A stretch of DNA of 64,000 nt. Origin: an uncultured Chloroflexia bacterium. GTDB taxonomy: Bacteria > Chloroflexota > Limnocylindria > Limnocylindrales > CSP1-4. Position 1 is the stretch's first letter; each line of letters opens with the position of its first letter. The DNA is taken from assembly GCA_963748625.1 (NCBI GenBank), contig CAVVJT010000010.1:256001-320000 (forward strand), read 5' to 3'. Of this stretch, positions 16,580 to 23,925 are shown one piece after another. A program made the position numbers and the translations under genes. The notes below the pieces were generated by a model. The model saw nothing but the letters and a program-made list of their open reading frames with translations, had not been told where the DNA came from and did no database searches.

Positions 16580-16882
16580 ATCCCCCAGCCATGGGGCGAA
16601 ACGGGCCGGGGCCCACAGGGATCAACCCACGGATCGACAGTCTGGGCGTCCAGCCCAGCGTGGAGCCCCTCGTTCGCCCCATACCTGGGGCGCCGCCGGG
16701 GCCGGCAGGGGCGCCGCCAGGGCGCGGCAGTGGCGCGACCGGGCGCCGCCGGGCGCCACCGGGGCGACTCCGGAGCGCTGCCGGGCGCACCGAACGCCAC
16801 CGGGGCGCCGCCGGGCGCCACCGGGCGGCGTACCACCGCCGCGGAAAGGCATCCACCAGGCATTGGCGGGACGAGGTGCTAG
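16580..16882. repeat. Intergenic palindrome, GGGCGCC(A/G)CC repeats and a MITE-like terminal sequence
   Basis: Arms CCCCAGCCATGGGGCGAAACG...CGTTCGCCCCATACCTGGGG. The end ATCCACCAGGCATTGGCGGGACGAGGTGCTAG resembles 53121-53152. Confidence 0.5.
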
Positions 16883-19137
16883 GACCGACCGCGCACCTTC
16901 GCCGAGGCAACGCTCTTGAGGCCCGCCCCGTCCACTGCCTTCACGTAGTAGTAGGCTCCGCGCCGGGTGACAATCCTGATCCGCGATCTCGTCGTGCTGG
17001 CGACGGGCCTCGAGCGGCCCACGCGGTAGATCAGGTACTTCACGACACGGACGTTGTCCGACGACGCTGCCCAGTCGAAGCTCACGCGCCTCCCGGACCG
17101 TGACACCCTGTGGAAGTGGCGCGGCCTGGTCGGCGCGGCCTGGTCGGCGGGCGTCCGGATCTCGACCGGCACCGCCGCCCCGACATTGCCGGCCACGTCG
17201 CGCGCCGCGACCGTATAGGCGTACGAGGTCGCCGGCATCCGGCCGGGATCACTCACGGAGAGACCGCTCGTCGAGGCGATGAGCACGCCGTTGCGCGTGA
17301 CGTCGTAGCCGGTCACCCCGACGTCGTCCACCGCCTCATCCCACGAGAGCCTGACGCTGGTGACGGTGGCGCTTCCGAAGACGTTCCCGGGCGCACTCGG
17401 GGCGACGACATCCCCCTCGCCACCGGAGCCGGGGTCAGGGCTCGGGGCGGGTGACGCGCTGGGATCCGGAGTCGGGGCCTGCCCAGGCGTCACCACCGTG
17501 ATCGAGGCAGCGGGCCCCAGGTTGCCCGACGTGTCCTTCGCGGTGACCGTGTACGTGTAGCTGGTGCCCTCCGCCACGCTGCCGTCGAGGTAGCCGGTGG
17601 CGCCACGGTCCAGCGATGCGATCTGGGCCCCGTTGCGGTTGACGAGGTACGTGTCGATCGCGGTGTTGTCGGTGGCGGCGCTCCAGGTGAGCTGGACGCC
17701 CGAGCTGCCGCTCATGCCGGCCGCCAGGTTGCCGGGTGCCGTGGGGGCGATGCCCTCGCGAACGCGCACCGACACCCCGGCCGACGCCACCGACAGGACG
17801 GAGAACGAGATCGATGAGACGGGGTCGGTCATCGTGCGACCCACGACGAGCGCCGCATCGGCCAGGCCGGAGCTGCTCGTCGGGGTGGCATCAAGGAGCC
17901 GGCTCTGGCGGGGATCCGTCCCGGTGGCGGTGACCAGCGCGATCCGGATCGACACGCCCACGGTGACCGGGGAGCCGGCGCTGTACGTGTCGAAGGTGCC
18001 GTACGGCGTGCGGATGTCGAGATCGAAGTAGGTGCCGTCCCCGCGGGGCACGCGCACCAGCTTCACGCCCGACGGGCCGAAGTACGGAGCGATGGTGTAC
18101 GTGTTGCCCGGCGCCCCCACGACCTTCTCCGCATCGGCGAGCAGGCCCATGTCCACGAGACCCATCCCGTGGTTGTGGCGCAGCGCGTTGTTGCCCATCG
18201 TGCTGAACGGGTCGGCGTAGTAGTCCACCTCGCAGTTGGAGGGGCTGGCGATCATGACGGGCGCGCTGCCGCTCACGCAGCGCAGGCCGTTCGCATGGCC
18301 CAGGCCGAAGTTGTGGCCCAGCTCGTGGGTGAGGACCTGGACGCTGTCGGTGCCGTTGATGTACGACCACGTGCCGCCCACGTAGGCGACCCCGGCGAAC
18401 CCGCAGTCGCTGAGGCCCGGCCACATGAACATGATGTTGGTGTAGGCGCTGAGGTTCACCCCGGCGGCCGTCGCCTTCGCGGTGGCCTGGTCGTGATAGG
18501 TCGTGCGCCACTTGGTCGAGCAGCTCGTGGACGTGGCGTCGATCGTGTACCAGCCGAAGACGTCGGCGTCGAACGTGAGCCCGCCCTTCGCCTCCTCCTC
18601 GAAGAAGTCCTTCACGCTTGCCGTGCCCGTCTCCACCTGCTCGAGGATCCGGGCCTTGGTCCACGGCTGCGTCTTGAGGTCGCTGAAGTTGACGAGCACC
18701 ACGGCGAGCTTGCGGGTGGCGCCCACGCTCAGCGTGCTGAGATCCCCCGCGCCGCCGTCGAGGGTGGTCCCGTCGCTGGTCTCCGCCGCCCAGGCACCCT
18801 TCGAGGTCGCCTTGTCGAGGATACGGATGCCCTGGCCGCGCCCGGTGCCCGCGACACGGAGGAAACCGTTCACGCGCGTCCCGGTCAGCTCTACCCGCGA
18901 GCCTGCGAGATCGAGTGCGTCACCCCGCTCGAACTCCACCGGCGTGGTCCGTGCGCGGCTGCGCAGCGTATAGGCGTAGGTGTCCGTGCCCTCGACCTGC
19001 TCGAGCGTGTCGACGTAGGCGACCTCGAGGATCCCGGAGCGCTGCTCCTGCGCGACACCACCGGGTGCGGCTGCGCTCACGGGCGCCACGACGGCGGCCG
19101 CCAGGAGCATGCCGGCAAGGACCTGGAGGAGGCGCAT
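16879..19137 (-). CDS. Secreted metzincin metallopeptidase (M11/gametolysin-like) with three FN3 domains
   Basis: Signal peptide MRLLQVLAGMLL; HELGHNFGLGH zinc motif; Met-turn PFSTMG; three FN3 units (W.A..D.V.V..Y...Y.V.A.D..GN). Confidence 0.85.
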   Translation of the reverse strand: MRLLQVLAGMLLAAAVVAPVSAAAPGGVAQEQRSGILEVAYVDTLEQVEGTDTYAYTLRSRARTTPVEFERGDALDLAGSRVELTGTRVNGFLRVAGTGRGQGIRILDKATSKGAWAAETSDGTTLDGGAGDLSTLSVGATRKLAVVLVNFSDLKTQPWTKARILEQVETGTASVKDFFEEEAKGGLTFDADVFGWYTIDATSTSCSTKWRTTYHDQATAKATAAGVNLSAYTNIMFMWPGLSDCGFAGVAYVGGTWSYINGTDSVQVLTHELGHNFGLGHANGLRCVSGSAPVMIASPSNCEVDYYADPFSTMGNNALRHNHGMGLVDMGLLADAEKVVGAPGNTYTIAPYFGPSGVKLVRVPRGDGTYFDLDIRTPYGTFDTYSAGSPVTVGVSIRIALVTATGTDPRQSRLLDATPTSSSGLADAALVVGRTMTDPVSSISFSVLSVASAGVSVRVREGIAPTAPGNLAAGMSGSSGVQLTWSAATDNTAIDTYLVNRNGAQIASLDRGATGYLDGSVAEGTSYTYTVTAKDTSGNLGPAASITVVTPGQAPTPDPSASPAPSPDPGSGGEGDVVAPSAPGNVFGSATVTSVRLSWDEAVDDVGVTGYDVTRNGVLIASTSGLSVSDPGRMPATSYAYTVAARDVAGNVGAAVPVEIRTPADQAAPTRPRHFHRVSRSGRRVSFDWAASSDNVRVVKYLIYRVGRSRPVASTTRSRIRIVTRRGAYYYVKAVDGAGLKSVASAKVRGRS

Positions 19138-19363
19138 CTGTCTCCGCGCGACTGCTGACCAATGGACACAACGGTGTGCAGTCGAAGCGTCGGCGATACG
19201 CCTGCACGGGAACACGGGACGGCAGTGCCCCCACGCGGCAGCCGATGGTCCTACCGGGGCCTGTGCAATGCGGCGCACATGGTTGCGGCGCAGCCGATCC
19301 GGCTGCGCCGCGGTCTCCTGGCGGTCGGCGTCACCGCCGCCCGCATGATCGGTTCAGGCGGGT

Positions 19364-19774
19364 TCAGGCGCCCTGCTGCTCCCCACTCACGGCGTCCTTG
19401 GCGGACTCGGCGGCATCAGCGACGGTCTCGCTGGCGGCATCCGCGGCATCCGAAGCGGTCTCGGCGGCGGTGCCGGCGGCATCTGCGACGGTGTCGAGCG
19501 CGTCGTTGGCCGCGTCCACCGCGGCCTCACGGCGGCCCGCGGCCGCACTCTCGACACGTGCCTTGACGTCTGCGATCTGCGCGTCCATGCGGGACTGCAT
19601 CTCGGCGACGGCGCTCTCGACGCGCGAGCCGAGCTGGTCCAGGTCACGCTGTGACAGGTCGGAACGGACGCTCTCGTACGCCTGGCGCAGGTCCTTGCCG
19701 GACTGGCCCGCGTACACGACCGCTCCGATGGCCCCGATGACGACGCCCGACAGCAGGCCGACGACGAACTTCAT
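19364..19774 (-). CDS. YtxH-like small protein (N-terminal TM plus Ala/Asp-rich coiled region)
   Basis: MKFVVGLLSGVVIGAIGAVVYAGQSGKDLRQ; GGGGAGG RBS. Confidence 0.7.
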   Translation of the reverse strand: MKFVVGLLSGVVIGAIGAVVYAGQSGKDLRQAYESVRSDLSQRDLDQLGSRVESAVAEMQSRMDAQIADVKARVESAAAGRREAAVDAANDALDTVADAAGTAAETASDAADAASETVADAAESAKDAVSGEQQGA

Positions 19775-19826
19775 GACTGGTACCTCCCCGTTCGTGGACA
19801 GTGCGGACGCGCTTGGATGTCGCCAA

Positions 19827-21755
19827 CTACTCCAGGTAGTCCTTGAGCTTGCGACTGCGCGACGGATGCCGCAGCTTGCGCAGCGCCTTCGCCTCGATCT
19901 GGCGGATCCGCTCGCGGGTGACATTGAACTCCTTGCCCACCTCTTCCAAGGTCCGAGCGCGGCCATCCTCCAGGCCGAAGCGCAGTTGGAGGACCCGCCG
20001 CTCCCGCCCCGTCAGGGAGTCGAGCACGGCTTCGACCTGCTCCTTGAGCAGCTGGTGGCTGGCGGCTTCGGCCGGGGCGAGGGCGCCTCGGTCCTCGATG
20101 AAGTCACCGAGGTGCGAGTCCTCCTCCTCACCGATCGGCGTCTCGAGCGAGACCGGCTCCTGCGAGACCTTCATGATCTCACGGACCTTCTCGGGCGTGA
20201 CGACGACGACGATCTCGGCCTCCTTCTCCTTCTTCTTGGGCGGCTCGATATCGATGTCCCGGCCGACCTCCTTGACGTTGAACCCGTCCTCCGGAAGGCC
20301 GGCGAAGTCCACCTTCGAGCGGTCGGCCAGCTGGAGGAGGACGCCCGGCGTCTTGTCGCCACGCACCTCGAAGGACACGATGTTGTCGCGCCCGCCGACG
20401 GCCGTGAAGATGCGGGTCGTGTTGTCCGGCCCCAGGGTCATCGCAAGGGCGATCTCCTCCACCGTGGGCTCGCGGCCCAGGTCCTGGAGGAGCTGGCGCG
20501 ACACGCGGATCAGGCGGTTGATCGTCTCGACCATGTGGACCGGGATCCGGATGGTCCGGGCCTGGTCCGCGATGGCGCGGGTGATCGCCTGGCGGATCCA
20601 CCACGTCGCGTAGGTGGAGAACTTGAAGCCCTTCTCGAAGTCGAACTTCTCCACCGCCCGGATGAGACCGATGTTCCCCTCCTGGATCAGGTCCAGGAAG
20701 CTCATGCCGCGCCCGATGTACTTCTTGGCGATGGACACGACGAGGCGCAGGTTGGCCGAGGTGAGCTGCTCGCGGGCGTCACGGCCGATCTTGACCACGT
20801 CGCCCTTGCGGTCGCGCATCTTGGTCTGGGGCGGGACCTCGGGGTCAAAGCCCATGCGGCGCAGCAGGTCGGCATCGTTGCCGGCCTCGATCCAGCGCTG
20901 GAGCGCCGGGTAGGCGACCTCGTCGCGCGTCCAGTCGTAGATGGCGCGCAGGCCGGGGTTGTCGCGCGAGTCGAGATCCCCGTTGTGGACCGAGAGATAG
21001 GACCAGTCGAGAATCTCGTTGAACGCTGCCGCTGTCGGCGCCTCGTTGTAGGCTGCCAGCTTCTCCTTGGCCTGCTTGAGCAGCGCCTTGGTACCGTCGG
21101 ACTGGGCGTCCTTGGCCAGCTTGGTGTACGCGATCTCGGGTCCCGGAACGAGCAGGTCGCTCGCGCCGTCGGCGGCCAGGGCATCCGCCACCATCTGGTG
21201 GGTCTCGGGACCGAAGGGCAGCCGGTGCTGCGACTTCGCGGTGCGGGTCTTGCGCTCCGTCTCGTGGAGGGTCCACTCGTGCAGCGAGACGATCGCCTTC
21301 CACGGCTCCACGATGATCTGCTCGCCCAGCTCGATCGCCTTGGCGAGGACGACCTCCTCCTCCGCGGTGAGCAGCGCGACCTTGCCGATCTCCTTGAGGT
21401 ACATCCGGACCGGGTCGTCGATCCCGATCATGTCCGCGGAGAGCGCCTCCAGCTCCTCCGTGGACGGCTCCTCCACCTCGGCGGCGTTGAGCTTGGGCGG
21501 GGCGTCCTCGGTTGGCACCGGGACGCCCTCGATGGCCTCCTCGGTCACGATCTCCAGGGAGAGCTCCGGCTCCTCGGGCAGGAGGTCGATGTCGTCCTCG
21601 TCGTCCTCGTCGTCGGACGGCGCTGCCGGCTGCACGGCCACCGCGGCGGGCGCAGCCTTCCTGCCCGACCGGCGGGCGGGCTTCGGAGCGGCCGGGGCCC
21701 CGACTGCCTCCTCGGCCTCGACTGCCTCCGGGGCGATGTCGGTCTCGTCGGTCAT
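19827..21755 (-). CDS. rpoD: Primary sigma factor RpoD (sigma70 group 1) with an extra insertion in region 3
   Basis: [75 protein letters not shown]; downstream of dnaG. Confidence 0.96.
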
Positions 21756-21819
21756 AGGGTCGAGGTCCTCCCGGGTGGCTGGAACGGCGCTGGGACGCAT
21801 GGAGCGGGTCATGTGGGGG

Positions 21820-23766
21820 TCACGCCGTAGCCGCCCCGGCACGGGTGAGAAGGCGGGTCTGGTCACGCCGGCGGTCAAGCGACCGGCGCTGCTCGTTGAG
21901 GAGCCGGCGCTCGAGCATGAGGCGGTCAACCGACTCGGCGTCACCGTCGCGCTCGGCCTCTGCGGTGGCGTCGCGGTTGAAGCCGCTGCGCTCCTGCCAC
22001 TCCACGTCGTCCAGCTCGAGCATGAGACGCTCGATCTCGTACTTGAGCGAGCGGTCGCCGAGATCGCGCGGATTGGGTCCGGGCCGGCTCACGAGGGCCT
22101 GGCCGAGGGCCCGGCTCTCCTCGTCGAGCCCGTCGAGCACCGCCGTGAGCGAGAAGGCCGGCCGGACCCCGTGATCGTCCCGGGTCCGGGCGATCACCAC
22201 GGCGCGGTAGAGCTCACGGGCCACCTGGGACGGCAGGCGATCGGGTCCGAGGCCGTCGAGGACGGCGTCATGCGTCTCGGGCACGAGCAGCACGAGCCGC
22301 AGGAGCTCCTGCTCCGTGCGTGAGACGCCGCGCAGGATGTCGGCCACGGGCAGCGCGTCGGGCGCCCTCGTGACGGCCTCAGCGGTGAAGCGGTCGCGAC
22401 CGTCCTGACCGCCGCGGCGGTCGTCGCCGGCCGGGCGCCGGTGGAGCGCCTCGAGCAGGGTCCGCTCCTCCACTCCGCTGACCTGGTGGACACGGGCGAG
22501 GTAGCCGTCACGCATCACCGGGTTGGGCAGGTTGCGGATGATCGGCAGGACGGCATCGACGAAGCGGGCGCGGCCGCCTGGCGCGCGCAGGTCGTGGACG
22601 CGGGCGTGGACGTCGATGAGGTAGTCGATGATCGGCTGCGCGGTCCGGACCTCCTCGCGCCAGCGGTCCGGCTCGTCCCGGATCACCTCGTCGGGGTCCC
22701 GGCCCTCGGGAAGGCGGACCACGCGCACGTCGTCGAGCTCCACGCCCGAGTCGTCCGGGGCCAGCTGGCGGATCAGCTCCTCGAGCGCGGTGGCGCCGAA
22801 GGTGCCCGCCTTCTGGCCCGCAGCGTCGACGTCGTAGGCGAGCGCGATCCGCTTGCCGTACCGGGTGATCAGGGCGACCTGCTGCGGCGTGAGCGCCGTA
22901 CCGAGGCTGGCGACCACGTTCTCGAAGCCCGCCTGGTGGGCCATCAGCGCGTCGGTGTAGCCCTCGACGATCACCGCCTGGCCGGTCTTGCGGATGGCGC
23001 TCTTGGCGCGGTCGACCAGGTACAGCGTGCGGCTCTTGTCGAACAGCGGCGTGGCCGGTGAGTTGAGGTACTTGGGGCCGCGATCCCGGCCGTCCTCGGT
23101 TGGCCCCTCCTTGCCCAGGATCCGGCCGCCCAGGCCCACCGGGTGCCCGTTGGCGTCGCGGATCGGGAAGATCACCCGCTCACGGAAGCGGTCGTACACG
23201 CCTCCCCCACGCTGGCGCGGGCTGGCCAGGCCGACCTCGAGCAGCTCGTCGGGGCGGACCTGCCGCTTGGAGGCGAGCTGGCGGGCGAGCGAGTCCCAGC
23301 CGCCCGGCGCCCAACCGAGCTGGTGCTTCTCGATGGTGGCGTCCGTGAAGCCGCGGTCCTTGAGGTACGCGAGGGCGGCCTCGCCCTGCTTCGACTTGGT
23401 CAGGACCGCGTGGTAGAAGGCGATCGCGGCCTCCATCACGTCGCGCAGGCGGGCGGCGCGGGCATCCTCGCGCTTGGTCCGCTCGTCGATCTCCACCCCG
23501 GCCCGCGCGGCCAGCGCCTTGAGCGCCTCGGGGAAGGCGACCTGGTCGCGCTCCATGACGAACGTGAAGATGTCGCCGTGGAGGCCGCAGCCGAAGCAGT
23601 GCCACGTGTCGCGCACAGGGGTCACGACGAAGGACGGCGTCTTCTCGCCGTGGAACGGGCACAGCCCCTTGAGGGTGGTGCCGGCCTTCTTCAGCTGGAC
23701 CGTCTCCCCGACCACGTCAGCGACCGGTAGGCGACCCTTGATCTCGGCGACAACGCCGACCGCCAA
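21820..23766 (-). CDS. dnaG: DNA primase
   Basis: Zn finger [11 protein letters not shown]...CFGC; KYLNSP; TOPRIM VEGYTD and YDVDAAG; TTG start with GGGGAGGAG RBS. Confidence 0.96.
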
Positions 23767-23820
23767 GCGCGCTCCTCCCCGAATTCCCTGGGCTCGTACC
23801 GGCGGAAATGACGACGGACC

Positions 23821-23925
23821 TGTCAAGTCTTGACAGGCCTCGCCAGCGATCGAGAGTACCCCCGGTCACCGGTTCCGGCAAGGAACCACGGGCGTTGTCA
23901 AGTGCCGTGTCAAGAGGCTGTCAAG
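23821..23925. promoter_or_regulatory. TGTCAAG/CTTGACA motif cluster upstream of dnaG-rpoD
   Basis: Palindrome TGTCAAG-T-CTTGACA at 23821-23835, plus TGTCAAG direct repeats at 23896, 23908 and 23919. Confidence 0.55.

Follow-up and report, generated by a model that had tools for sequence, protein, structure and literature searches.

The sigma factor gene rpoD in a 64,000 bp stretch of DNA from an uncultured Chloroflexia bacterium (GenBank assembly GCA_963748625.1, contig CAVVJT010000010.1, positions 256,001 to 320,000; the whole stretch is called the window here) carries an in-frame insertion of 79 amino acids (aa) in the turn that links the second helix (b) of sigma domain 3 to the third (c). 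By sequence and predicted fold the insert is homologous to the glucose-class EIIB domain of the phosphotransferase system (PTS), and it is predicted to be catalytically dead as a phosphocarrier. We infer, with a probability of roughly 0.6, that it is a lineage-specific accessory surface module of the RNA polymerase holoenzyme derived from an EIIB domain. Residue numbers such as 503–581 or Leu500 refer to the 705 aa open reading frame (ORF) unless the 642 aa form of RpoD is named, and genomes with and without the insert are called carriers and non-carriers.

Evidence that the insertion is genuine

An original prediction, made from the letters of the window, had reported approximately 75 extra amino acids in region 3 of RpoD at 20200–20441. 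The peptide is indeed present, as residues 503–581, and the position agrees within 3 nt with the limits found here (20202–20438), although the minus strand of the gene had not been stated. In an alignment of 28 relatives, carriers are 75–82 residues longer and the flanks are almost invariant. Three genomes of the same genus with rpoD genes approximately 80% identical (G005, G006 and G024) skip residues 444–516 of the 642 aa form, the two matching pieces lying one codon apart. The same skip was found in all 12 further non-carrier genomes, which represent eight genera (three codons apart in G094), and an intact rpoD lacking the insert was present in each of the 15 non-carrier genomes examined. 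Without the insert, the loop is short: SKGQE (5 aa) in the 62 RpoD proteins of the family that lack it, 7 aa in a sister family, and 4 aa in paralogues. The insert opens with T-L-G-P-D, which probably corresponds to the S-K-G-Q-E of non-carriers, and the net gain over the same-genus orthologues is then approximately 73 aa.

That the interruption is an artefact or a mobile element, whether a chimera of assembly, an intein or the scar of a transposon, is extremely improbable. Inserts of the identical type are found across dozens of independent assemblies, including 46 loci in metagenome-assembled genomes (MAGs), and 53 of the 120 database proteins listed cover the insert fully. Contigs from other sequencing runs cross both junctions with 0–7 mismatches (X1, 20142–20254 and 20225–20532; X6, 20402–20540). 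The G+C content at third codon positions (GC3) is 0.96 in the insert and 0.93 in the gene, which indicates native codon usage. Flanking or terminal repeats were looked for at the insert and none was found, and neither the insert nor RpoD matched an intein or transposase family in Pfam. We conclude that the insertion is genuine, and the chimera that had been raised alongside the original prediction is ruled out.

Relationship to glucose-class EIIB

The original prediction had described the insert as a degenerate glucose-class EIIB fold placed in sigma-3, and both the fold and the placement, which is the turn linking helices b and c of that domain, were borne out. When the insert alone was compared with Pfam, it matched PF00367 with an E value of 3.5e-4 (20.4 bits; profile positions 2–17 of 34), and 14 of 22 inserts matched this family at E ≤ 1. 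A profile built from the 22 inserts returned E. coli IIB(Glc) as its top three matches among PDB sequences, with 55 aligned residues, and three extra residues of the insert fall exactly at the EIIB active-site loop. Comparison by hhalign with a genuine stand-alone EIIB from the same bacterial family gave a probability of 85% (E 5.8e-6; 47 columns, 30% identity). In the reverse direction, searching 1.84 billion representative proteins with the insert profile returned 16 matches at E ≤ 1e-3, comprising seven insert-bearing sigma factors or fragments, five proteins made up of two to five PF00367 repeats, and four cases of repeat or low-complexity noise. Proteins with tandem PF00367 domains thus account for five of the nine non-sigma matches. 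The insert and EIIB share one register, in which GGxxN follows helix 1 and D-x-S-K-V-D follows strand 2. The two best clusters in a feature search of the ESM Atlas also carry PF00367 (score 0.76), which we treat as a lead only.

Structure prediction pointed to the same family. The EIIB fold has the element order helix, two strands, helix, two strands, C-terminal helix. In an AlphaFold2 model (model 1; predicted local distance difference test score, pLDDT, 76.2), the insert forms a helix, two strands, short helical turns and two further strands, followed by a disordered linker. The top five Foldseek matches of this model in the PDB were all EIIB domains (probability 1.00; root-mean-square deviation 1.8–2.6 A), and VIA-align, which is independent of Foldseek, placed 3ipj_B (Z 6.5) and 3bp3_A (Z 6.4) first among 48,161 chains, with the next at 5.3. 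Model 2, which was built from a divergent subgroup alone (approximately 40% identical; pLDDT 74.8), has the same topology. Its top six Foldseek matches were all EIIB, and VIA-align again placed 3ipj_B and 3bp3_A first (Z 5.4 and 5.3; next 3.7). Relative to the full EIIB fold, the insert in both models has only a reduced middle helix and lacks the C-terminal one, and both predict that the flanking sigma-3 helices are intact.

Taken singly, the scores weigh against this assignment. Both PF00367 matches lie below the gathering cut-off of 27 bits (20.4 for the insert, 14.3 for the whole protein), the E values in the PDB profile search were only 0.009–0.04, Foldseek E values were 1.3e-3 at best, and the VIA-align Z scores are below 8, a range in which, as the tool warns, common arrangements can occur. 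No single similarity score is strong. A profile of the divergent subgroup (g24-type, A3) returned no match among PDB sequences at E ≤ 10. A small alpha-beta-beta-beta-beta domain of independent origin that merely resembles EIIB might produce such a picture, with Z scores of 5.3–6.5 and a sequence signal that is under the Pfam cut-off and missing from the divergent subgroup. It would not be expected to bring independent sequence and structure routes to the same family in the same register, nor to recover EIIB proteins in the reverse search and rank EIIB first for two separately built models, and we regard convergence as very unlikely. It is because independent methods converge on one family in one register, with no single score being strong, that we assign the insert to EIIB.

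The tandem-repeat proteins recovered in the reverse search (P0133, P0136, P0137, P0138 and P0139) are an observation in their own right. They are 234–431 aa long and consist of two to five tandem PF00367 domains and little else, an unexpected architecture.

Loss of the phosphocarrier site and PTS gene content

As originally predicted, the Cys-x-T-R motif is absent from the insert, and none of the 58 inserts contains any Cys. Among 50 distinct inserts, the column aligned to the phospho-accepting Cys holds Arg (38), Asn (8), His (3) or Lys (1), and the column of the second arginine of TRLR holds Arg (34), Thr (13), His (2) or Leu (1), the last being the window's own copy. The C-terminal EIIB helix is missing, with a Lys/Glu-rich strap in its place. 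Having lost the phospho-accepting Cys, the arginines beside it and the C-terminal helix, the insert is predicted to be unable to act as a phosphocarrier and is, on this evidence, catalytically dead. In the window's insert, the position of the second arginine is Leu542 (20316–20318), the third residue of G-V-L-L-Q-L.

EIIA(Glc) (PF00358), EIIC (PF02378) and EIIA-Ntr were not found in the genome, which is 98.3% complete. It does encode HPr, two EIIA-Man/DhaM-like genes and a ptsI that is apparently frameshifted after the phosphohistidine domain. Across the family, true EIIC-EIIB-EIIA(Glc) operons were present in only 3 of 201 genomes, none of which is a known carrier.

These findings bear on the further proposal, made in the original prediction, that the insert is a docking surface linking housekeeping transcription to PTS or carbon status. 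A PTS-coupled sensor of this kind would use its EIIB-derived surface to dock HPr, a DhaM-type EIIA or an Mlc-like regulator, and transcription of the housekeeping kind would then respond directly to that status. The EIIB ancestry of the domain is consistent with this, as is the retention of HPr and of the two EIIA-Man/DhaM-like genes. Set against it are the lack of a Cys or other conserved nucleophile at the aligned position, the unconserved arginines and active-site face, the fast evolution of the insert surface, the missing PTS partners and apparently frameshifted ptsI, and the rarity of the true operons in the family. The docking proposal is unsupported, and we consider a PTS-coupled sensor quite unlikely. 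A complex prediction for the insert (alignment A2) and the genome's HPr gave a score of 0.01 and a mark of 0.32, and speaks neither for nor against binding. A built-in receiver on sigma, in which the domesticated EIIB surface would bind HPr, a DhaM-type EIIA, a ROK/Mlc-like regulator or a lineage-specific factor, is likewise a long shot. If such a receiver did exist, global transcription initiation would be tuned directly by carbon or energy status, and insert-bearing and insert-less rpoD alleles, which share freshwater communities and have passed between genera, would correspond to two regulatory lifestyles.

Three details of the PTS genes were noted separately. The ptsI gene (G000 contig C7, approximately 474.5–476.3 kb; L031:5543-7247, minus strand) reads in two frames, the first ending at AYGIPAVVGI with the phosphoenolpyruvate-binding part in another, and is either a pseudogene or the product of a sequencing error. 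The EIIA-Man/DhaM-like genes are part of a glycerol cluster (G000:C10:586880-601190; L030, L032 and L033) that also includes a channel of the major intrinsic protein family (GlpF), an FGGY kinase (GlpK) and subunits of a GlpABC-type dehydrogenase. A stand-alone HPr gene lies approximately 7 kb from this cluster, and its product has a 48-residue N-terminal extension if the GTG start is real.

Distribution and history

Of 401 genomes sampled from the class, 10 are carriers, from three genera of a single family (9 of 137 genomes besides the query), and none was found among 263 genomes of four other families. The comparison of RpoD suggested with the original prediction was made here across the class and confines the insert to one Chloroflexota family. 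A separate search found two additional carriers of the same genus. In a species-level collection of 185,579 genomes, 46 insert loci were spread over 41 MAGs, whose titles all name Chloroflexota, Chloroflexia or Limnocylindrales.

A protein tree of 70 RpoD rows gave poor resolution, leaving 30 of 67 branches open, and an rpoD DNA tree of 25 genomes, with the insert and the six preceding codons masked, was used instead. Carriers occupy four places on this tree, namely a g1 subclade, g31, the g24 core and G373. The g1 carriers are sister to g1 non-carriers, g31 is beside g3 and g8, and the g24 core is beside g10. The starred branches force four changes, and the approximately unbiased (AU) test rejects a single carrier clade (log-likelihood difference 151, p 9.4e-7). 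Non-carriers all have one common junction and Glu or Asp at residue 500. As repeated precise deletion would not regenerate this junction together with Glu/Asp500, we favour a single gain of the insert, after which related lineages would have exchanged the sigma-3 segment or allele via their near-identical flanks. Many losses of the insert are possible as an alternative history. No clear recombination tract around the insertion site was seen in DNA distances by segment (left flank 0.113 versus 0.114), and the other segments follow genus.

Insert-bearing and insert-less (EAMSKGQE) rpoD alleles occur together in the same freshwater metagenomes (window 20050–20600, including run X1). In the soil metatranscriptome X15, contigs cover only the conserved flanks and insert-less joints and none covers the insert itself, which is uninformative on expression.

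Two further sets of sigma loci were noted in these collections. Five g24-like MAGs contain a second insert-bearing sigma locus (L078, L081, L082, L083, L084 and L086), and several of these loci look truncated. Five of the six have seven extra residues in the turn between helix 1 and strand 1; the other, L084, which shares a contig with L078 at a distance of 12 kb, has an insert of ordinary length whose reading frame shifts within the Lys-rich linker. In P0065, a 422 aa sigma factor from another lineage, a segment of region 2.4–3.1 is apparently tandemly duplicated, with REPTPEEIAAEMNMPVDR occurring twice; this is either real or an assembly artefact.

Probable packing on sigma domain 3, selection and proposed role

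Residue 500, in helix b, is Leu, Met or Phe in all 58 carriers and Glu or Asp in all 62 non-carriers. Because a switch from Glu to Leu, Met or Phe is the signature of a hydrophobic contact, the insert probably packs rigidly onto sigma-3 rather than being merely tethered to it. When model 2 is aligned to EIIB, the match runs on into sigma-3 helix c, in place of the missing EIIB helix, which would agree with such packing, although the construct modelled was truncated and the overlap may be an artefact. From the topology of the three-helix bundle, we take the b–c turn to be at the end where helix a begins, the portion that recognizes the extended -10 element, and we infer that the insert would lie near the upstream edge of the -10/extended -10 region.

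The insert is under constraint, yet it evolves at more than 10 times the pace of the sigma core. For 16 pairs taken within clades, the ratio of non-synonymous to synonymous rates (omega) was 0.15–0.78 for the insert (median 0.37) versus 0.00–0.02 for regions 2–4. The PKKK[ED]KE motif of the linker is at least 90% conserved, the predicted fold is kept between insert subgroups that are only approximately 40% identical, and among 58 proteins the insert is in-frame with no frameshifted or decayed primary copy. Between g1 and g24, omega was 0.9–2.8, which we read neither for nor against positive selection because synonymous divergence is saturated (GC3 approximately 0.96) and only approximately 72 codons are available.

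In the reading that we favour, a glucose-class PTS EIIB domain would have settled in the helix b–c turn with helix 1, its GGxxN motif and a sheet of four strands retained. Close to the upstream edge of the -10/extended -10 region, the module would present a fast-evolving acidic surface along with a conserved Lys/Glu strap, and these may serve to contact a partner protein or to modulate the promoter complex. Because sister lineages in the same genus do without it, the insert would be dispensable for basic sigma function.

Several observations count against an accessory module. With an acidic body in each of the 50 distinct copies (median net charge -3), the insert makes a poor candidate for a simple DNA-binding patch. 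The beta and beta' subunits align end to end in carriers (G230 and G309) and non-carriers (G024 and G005), and partly in G006; at the scale of these alignments no co-varying indel was seen, and hence nothing that would mark a matching docking site on the core. Fast evolution and absence from close relatives would also fit a tolerated passenger.

Such a passenger would be a near-neutral EIIB fragment, functionless in a permissive sigma-3 loop, that hitch-hikes on recombining rpoD alleles. Besides its absence from sister lineages and a non-synonymous rate more than 10 times that of the core, the patchy occurrence in four separate carrier groups and the lack of a co-varying change in beta/beta' are what this explanation would lead one to expect. 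A functionless fragment is harder to reconcile with omega values below 1 in all 16 pairs, with retention of the fold and a nearly invariant linker motif across divergent subgroups, with a compensatory helix-b substitution fixed in 58 of 58 carriers, or with the lack of decayed primary copies, and we consider it unlikely.

One detail of the subunit genes is recorded here for its own sake. The rpoC of the carrier G309 (G309:C3:40670-45190) has one in-frame TGA inside an otherwise full-length match.

The rpoD gene and its setting

The features of rpoD are listed in Table 1. The ORF is open upstream of the ATG to a GTG at 21944 (19827–21944, minus strand; 705 aa). RpoD as a whole matched all four Pfam sigma regions above the cut-off (region 1.2, 57.6 bits; region 2, 82.2; region 3, 91.6; region 4, 70.3), with the Sigma70_r3 match broken into two stretches around the insert. 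PF03979 (region 1.1) had no match in RpoD at E ≤ 1, and the N-terminal 110 residues are acidic and variable. The gene order dnaG-rpoD is classical for primary sigma factors. Because regions 1.2, 2, 3 and 4 score above the cut-off and dnaG adjoins upstream, we read RpoD as a dnaG-linked, primary-type sigma factor with a putative housekeeping role. The genome and those of relatives also encode a second long sigma-70 paralogue, which is 51% identical and has no insert.

Table 1. Features of rpoD and its upstream neighbour in the window
Feature	Position	Strand	Residues	Comment
dnaG (primase)	21820..23826	minus		directly upstream of rpoD; stop codon 65 nt before the rpoD ATG
rpoD coding sequence	19827..21755	minus		ATG at 21755; 642 aa form on record (P0005)
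Sigma region 1.2	21318..21416	minus	177–209	Pfam
Non-conserved region between 1.2 and 2	20760..21317	minus		approximately 186 aa; in carriers and non-carriers alike
Sigma region 2	20553..20759	minus	396–464	Pfam
Sigma domain 3, N-terminal part (helices a and b)	20439..20534	minus	approximately 471–502	Pfam and model (model helix 2–11 is helix b)
Leu500 (helix b)	20445..20447	minus	500	sole sigma position outside the insert that tracks it perfectly
Whole inserted stretch	20202..20438	minus	503–581	79 aa
EIIB-like core	20244..20429	minus		predicted helix 506–515 with GGxxN; predicted strands 522–528, 534–539, 556–560 and 563–567
Lys/Glu-rich return linker	20202..20243	minus		P-K-K-K-[ED]-K-E nearly invariant; predicted disordered, pLDDT approximately 43
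Sigma domain 3, C-terminal part (helix c), and region 3.2	20064..20201	minus	582–627	Pfam; profile positions 32–77 of 78
Sigma region 4	19866..20027	minus	640–693	Pfam

Directly downstream of rpoD is an ORF for a small, membrane-anchored helical protein resembling YtxH or apolipoproteins (19364–19966, minus strand). As listed, this ORF overlaps the end of rpoD, so that its real start is probably an internal MKFVVG. Two genes downstream of rpoD (16879–19278, minus strand) is a gene for a predicted secreted zinc metallopeptidase of 799 aa, which has an HELGHNFGLGH motif, fibronectin type III repeats and weak Pfam matches to M11/M12.

Comparison with known systems

To our knowledge, primary sigma factors rank with the best-conserved proteins of bacteria, and the one stretch of them widely known to vary is that between regions 1.2 and 2. 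The helix b–c turn of sigma domain 3 would be a second site able to host a folded domain, and as such a candidate permissive site for sigma-factor engineering. The insert would also be a clear example of a metabolic signalling fold, here a dead PTS phosphocarrier, being recruited into the core transcription machinery, and close relatives with and without it in the same habitats offer a natural experiment on its role. As the organisms are uncultured and the function is putative, we regard the insert for now as a structural and evolutionary curiosity and not as a regulatory mechanism. In line with the original prediction, which knew of no described EIIB domain in sigma region 3, we found no report of an EIIB-type or any other folded domain inserted in sigma domain 3 among the openly accessible papers listed; the EIIB-like domains described there belong to regulators with PTS regulation domains (PRDs).

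Like the glucose-class EIIB domains (PF00367; E. coli IIB(Glc) 1IBA, 3BP3 and 1O2F; C. difficile 3IPJ), the insert has a helix with GGxxN(I/F), two strands, D-x-S-K-V-D and two further strands. Unlike them, it has no Cys, has three extra loop residues, has not kept the arginines and has a Lys/Glu linker instead of the C-terminal helix. It is also embedded in a sigma factor, with no EIIC or EIIA(Glc) partner found in the genome.

Lineage-specific insertions in beta and beta' are textbook features of RNA polymerase, and the non-conserved region of sigma-70 lies between regions 1.2 and 2.1. We know of neither the helix b–c turn among RNA polymerase insertion sites nor the EIIB fold among inserted folds. 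According to PMC4496699, beta/beta' insertions are lineage markers on the periphery of the enzyme. The insert resembles these insertions, and the sigma-70 non-conserved region, in being a clade-restricted domain, predicted to fold on its own, at a fixed site in a surface loop of a highly conserved subunit. However, the classical beta/beta' insertions mark whole phyla, whereas the sigma-3 insert is patchy even within a genus.

PTS domains are already known as protein-docking surfaces that affect transcription in two systems: HPr-Rsd-sigma-70, in which a PTS protein affects transcription in trans (PMC6055147), and the sequestration of Mlc by EIIB(Glc) (PDB 3BP8). Both of these act in trans and depend on phosphorylation state, while the insert is fused into sigma and its canonical phosphosite is gone. 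The PRD-containing regulators AtxA, MafR and the Mga family have EIIB-like domains of the galactitol-type class. They share with the insert the recruitment of an EIIB-type domain into a transcription factor; their EIIB-like domains, however, are C-terminal in stand-alone activators and are not insertions in a sigma factor.

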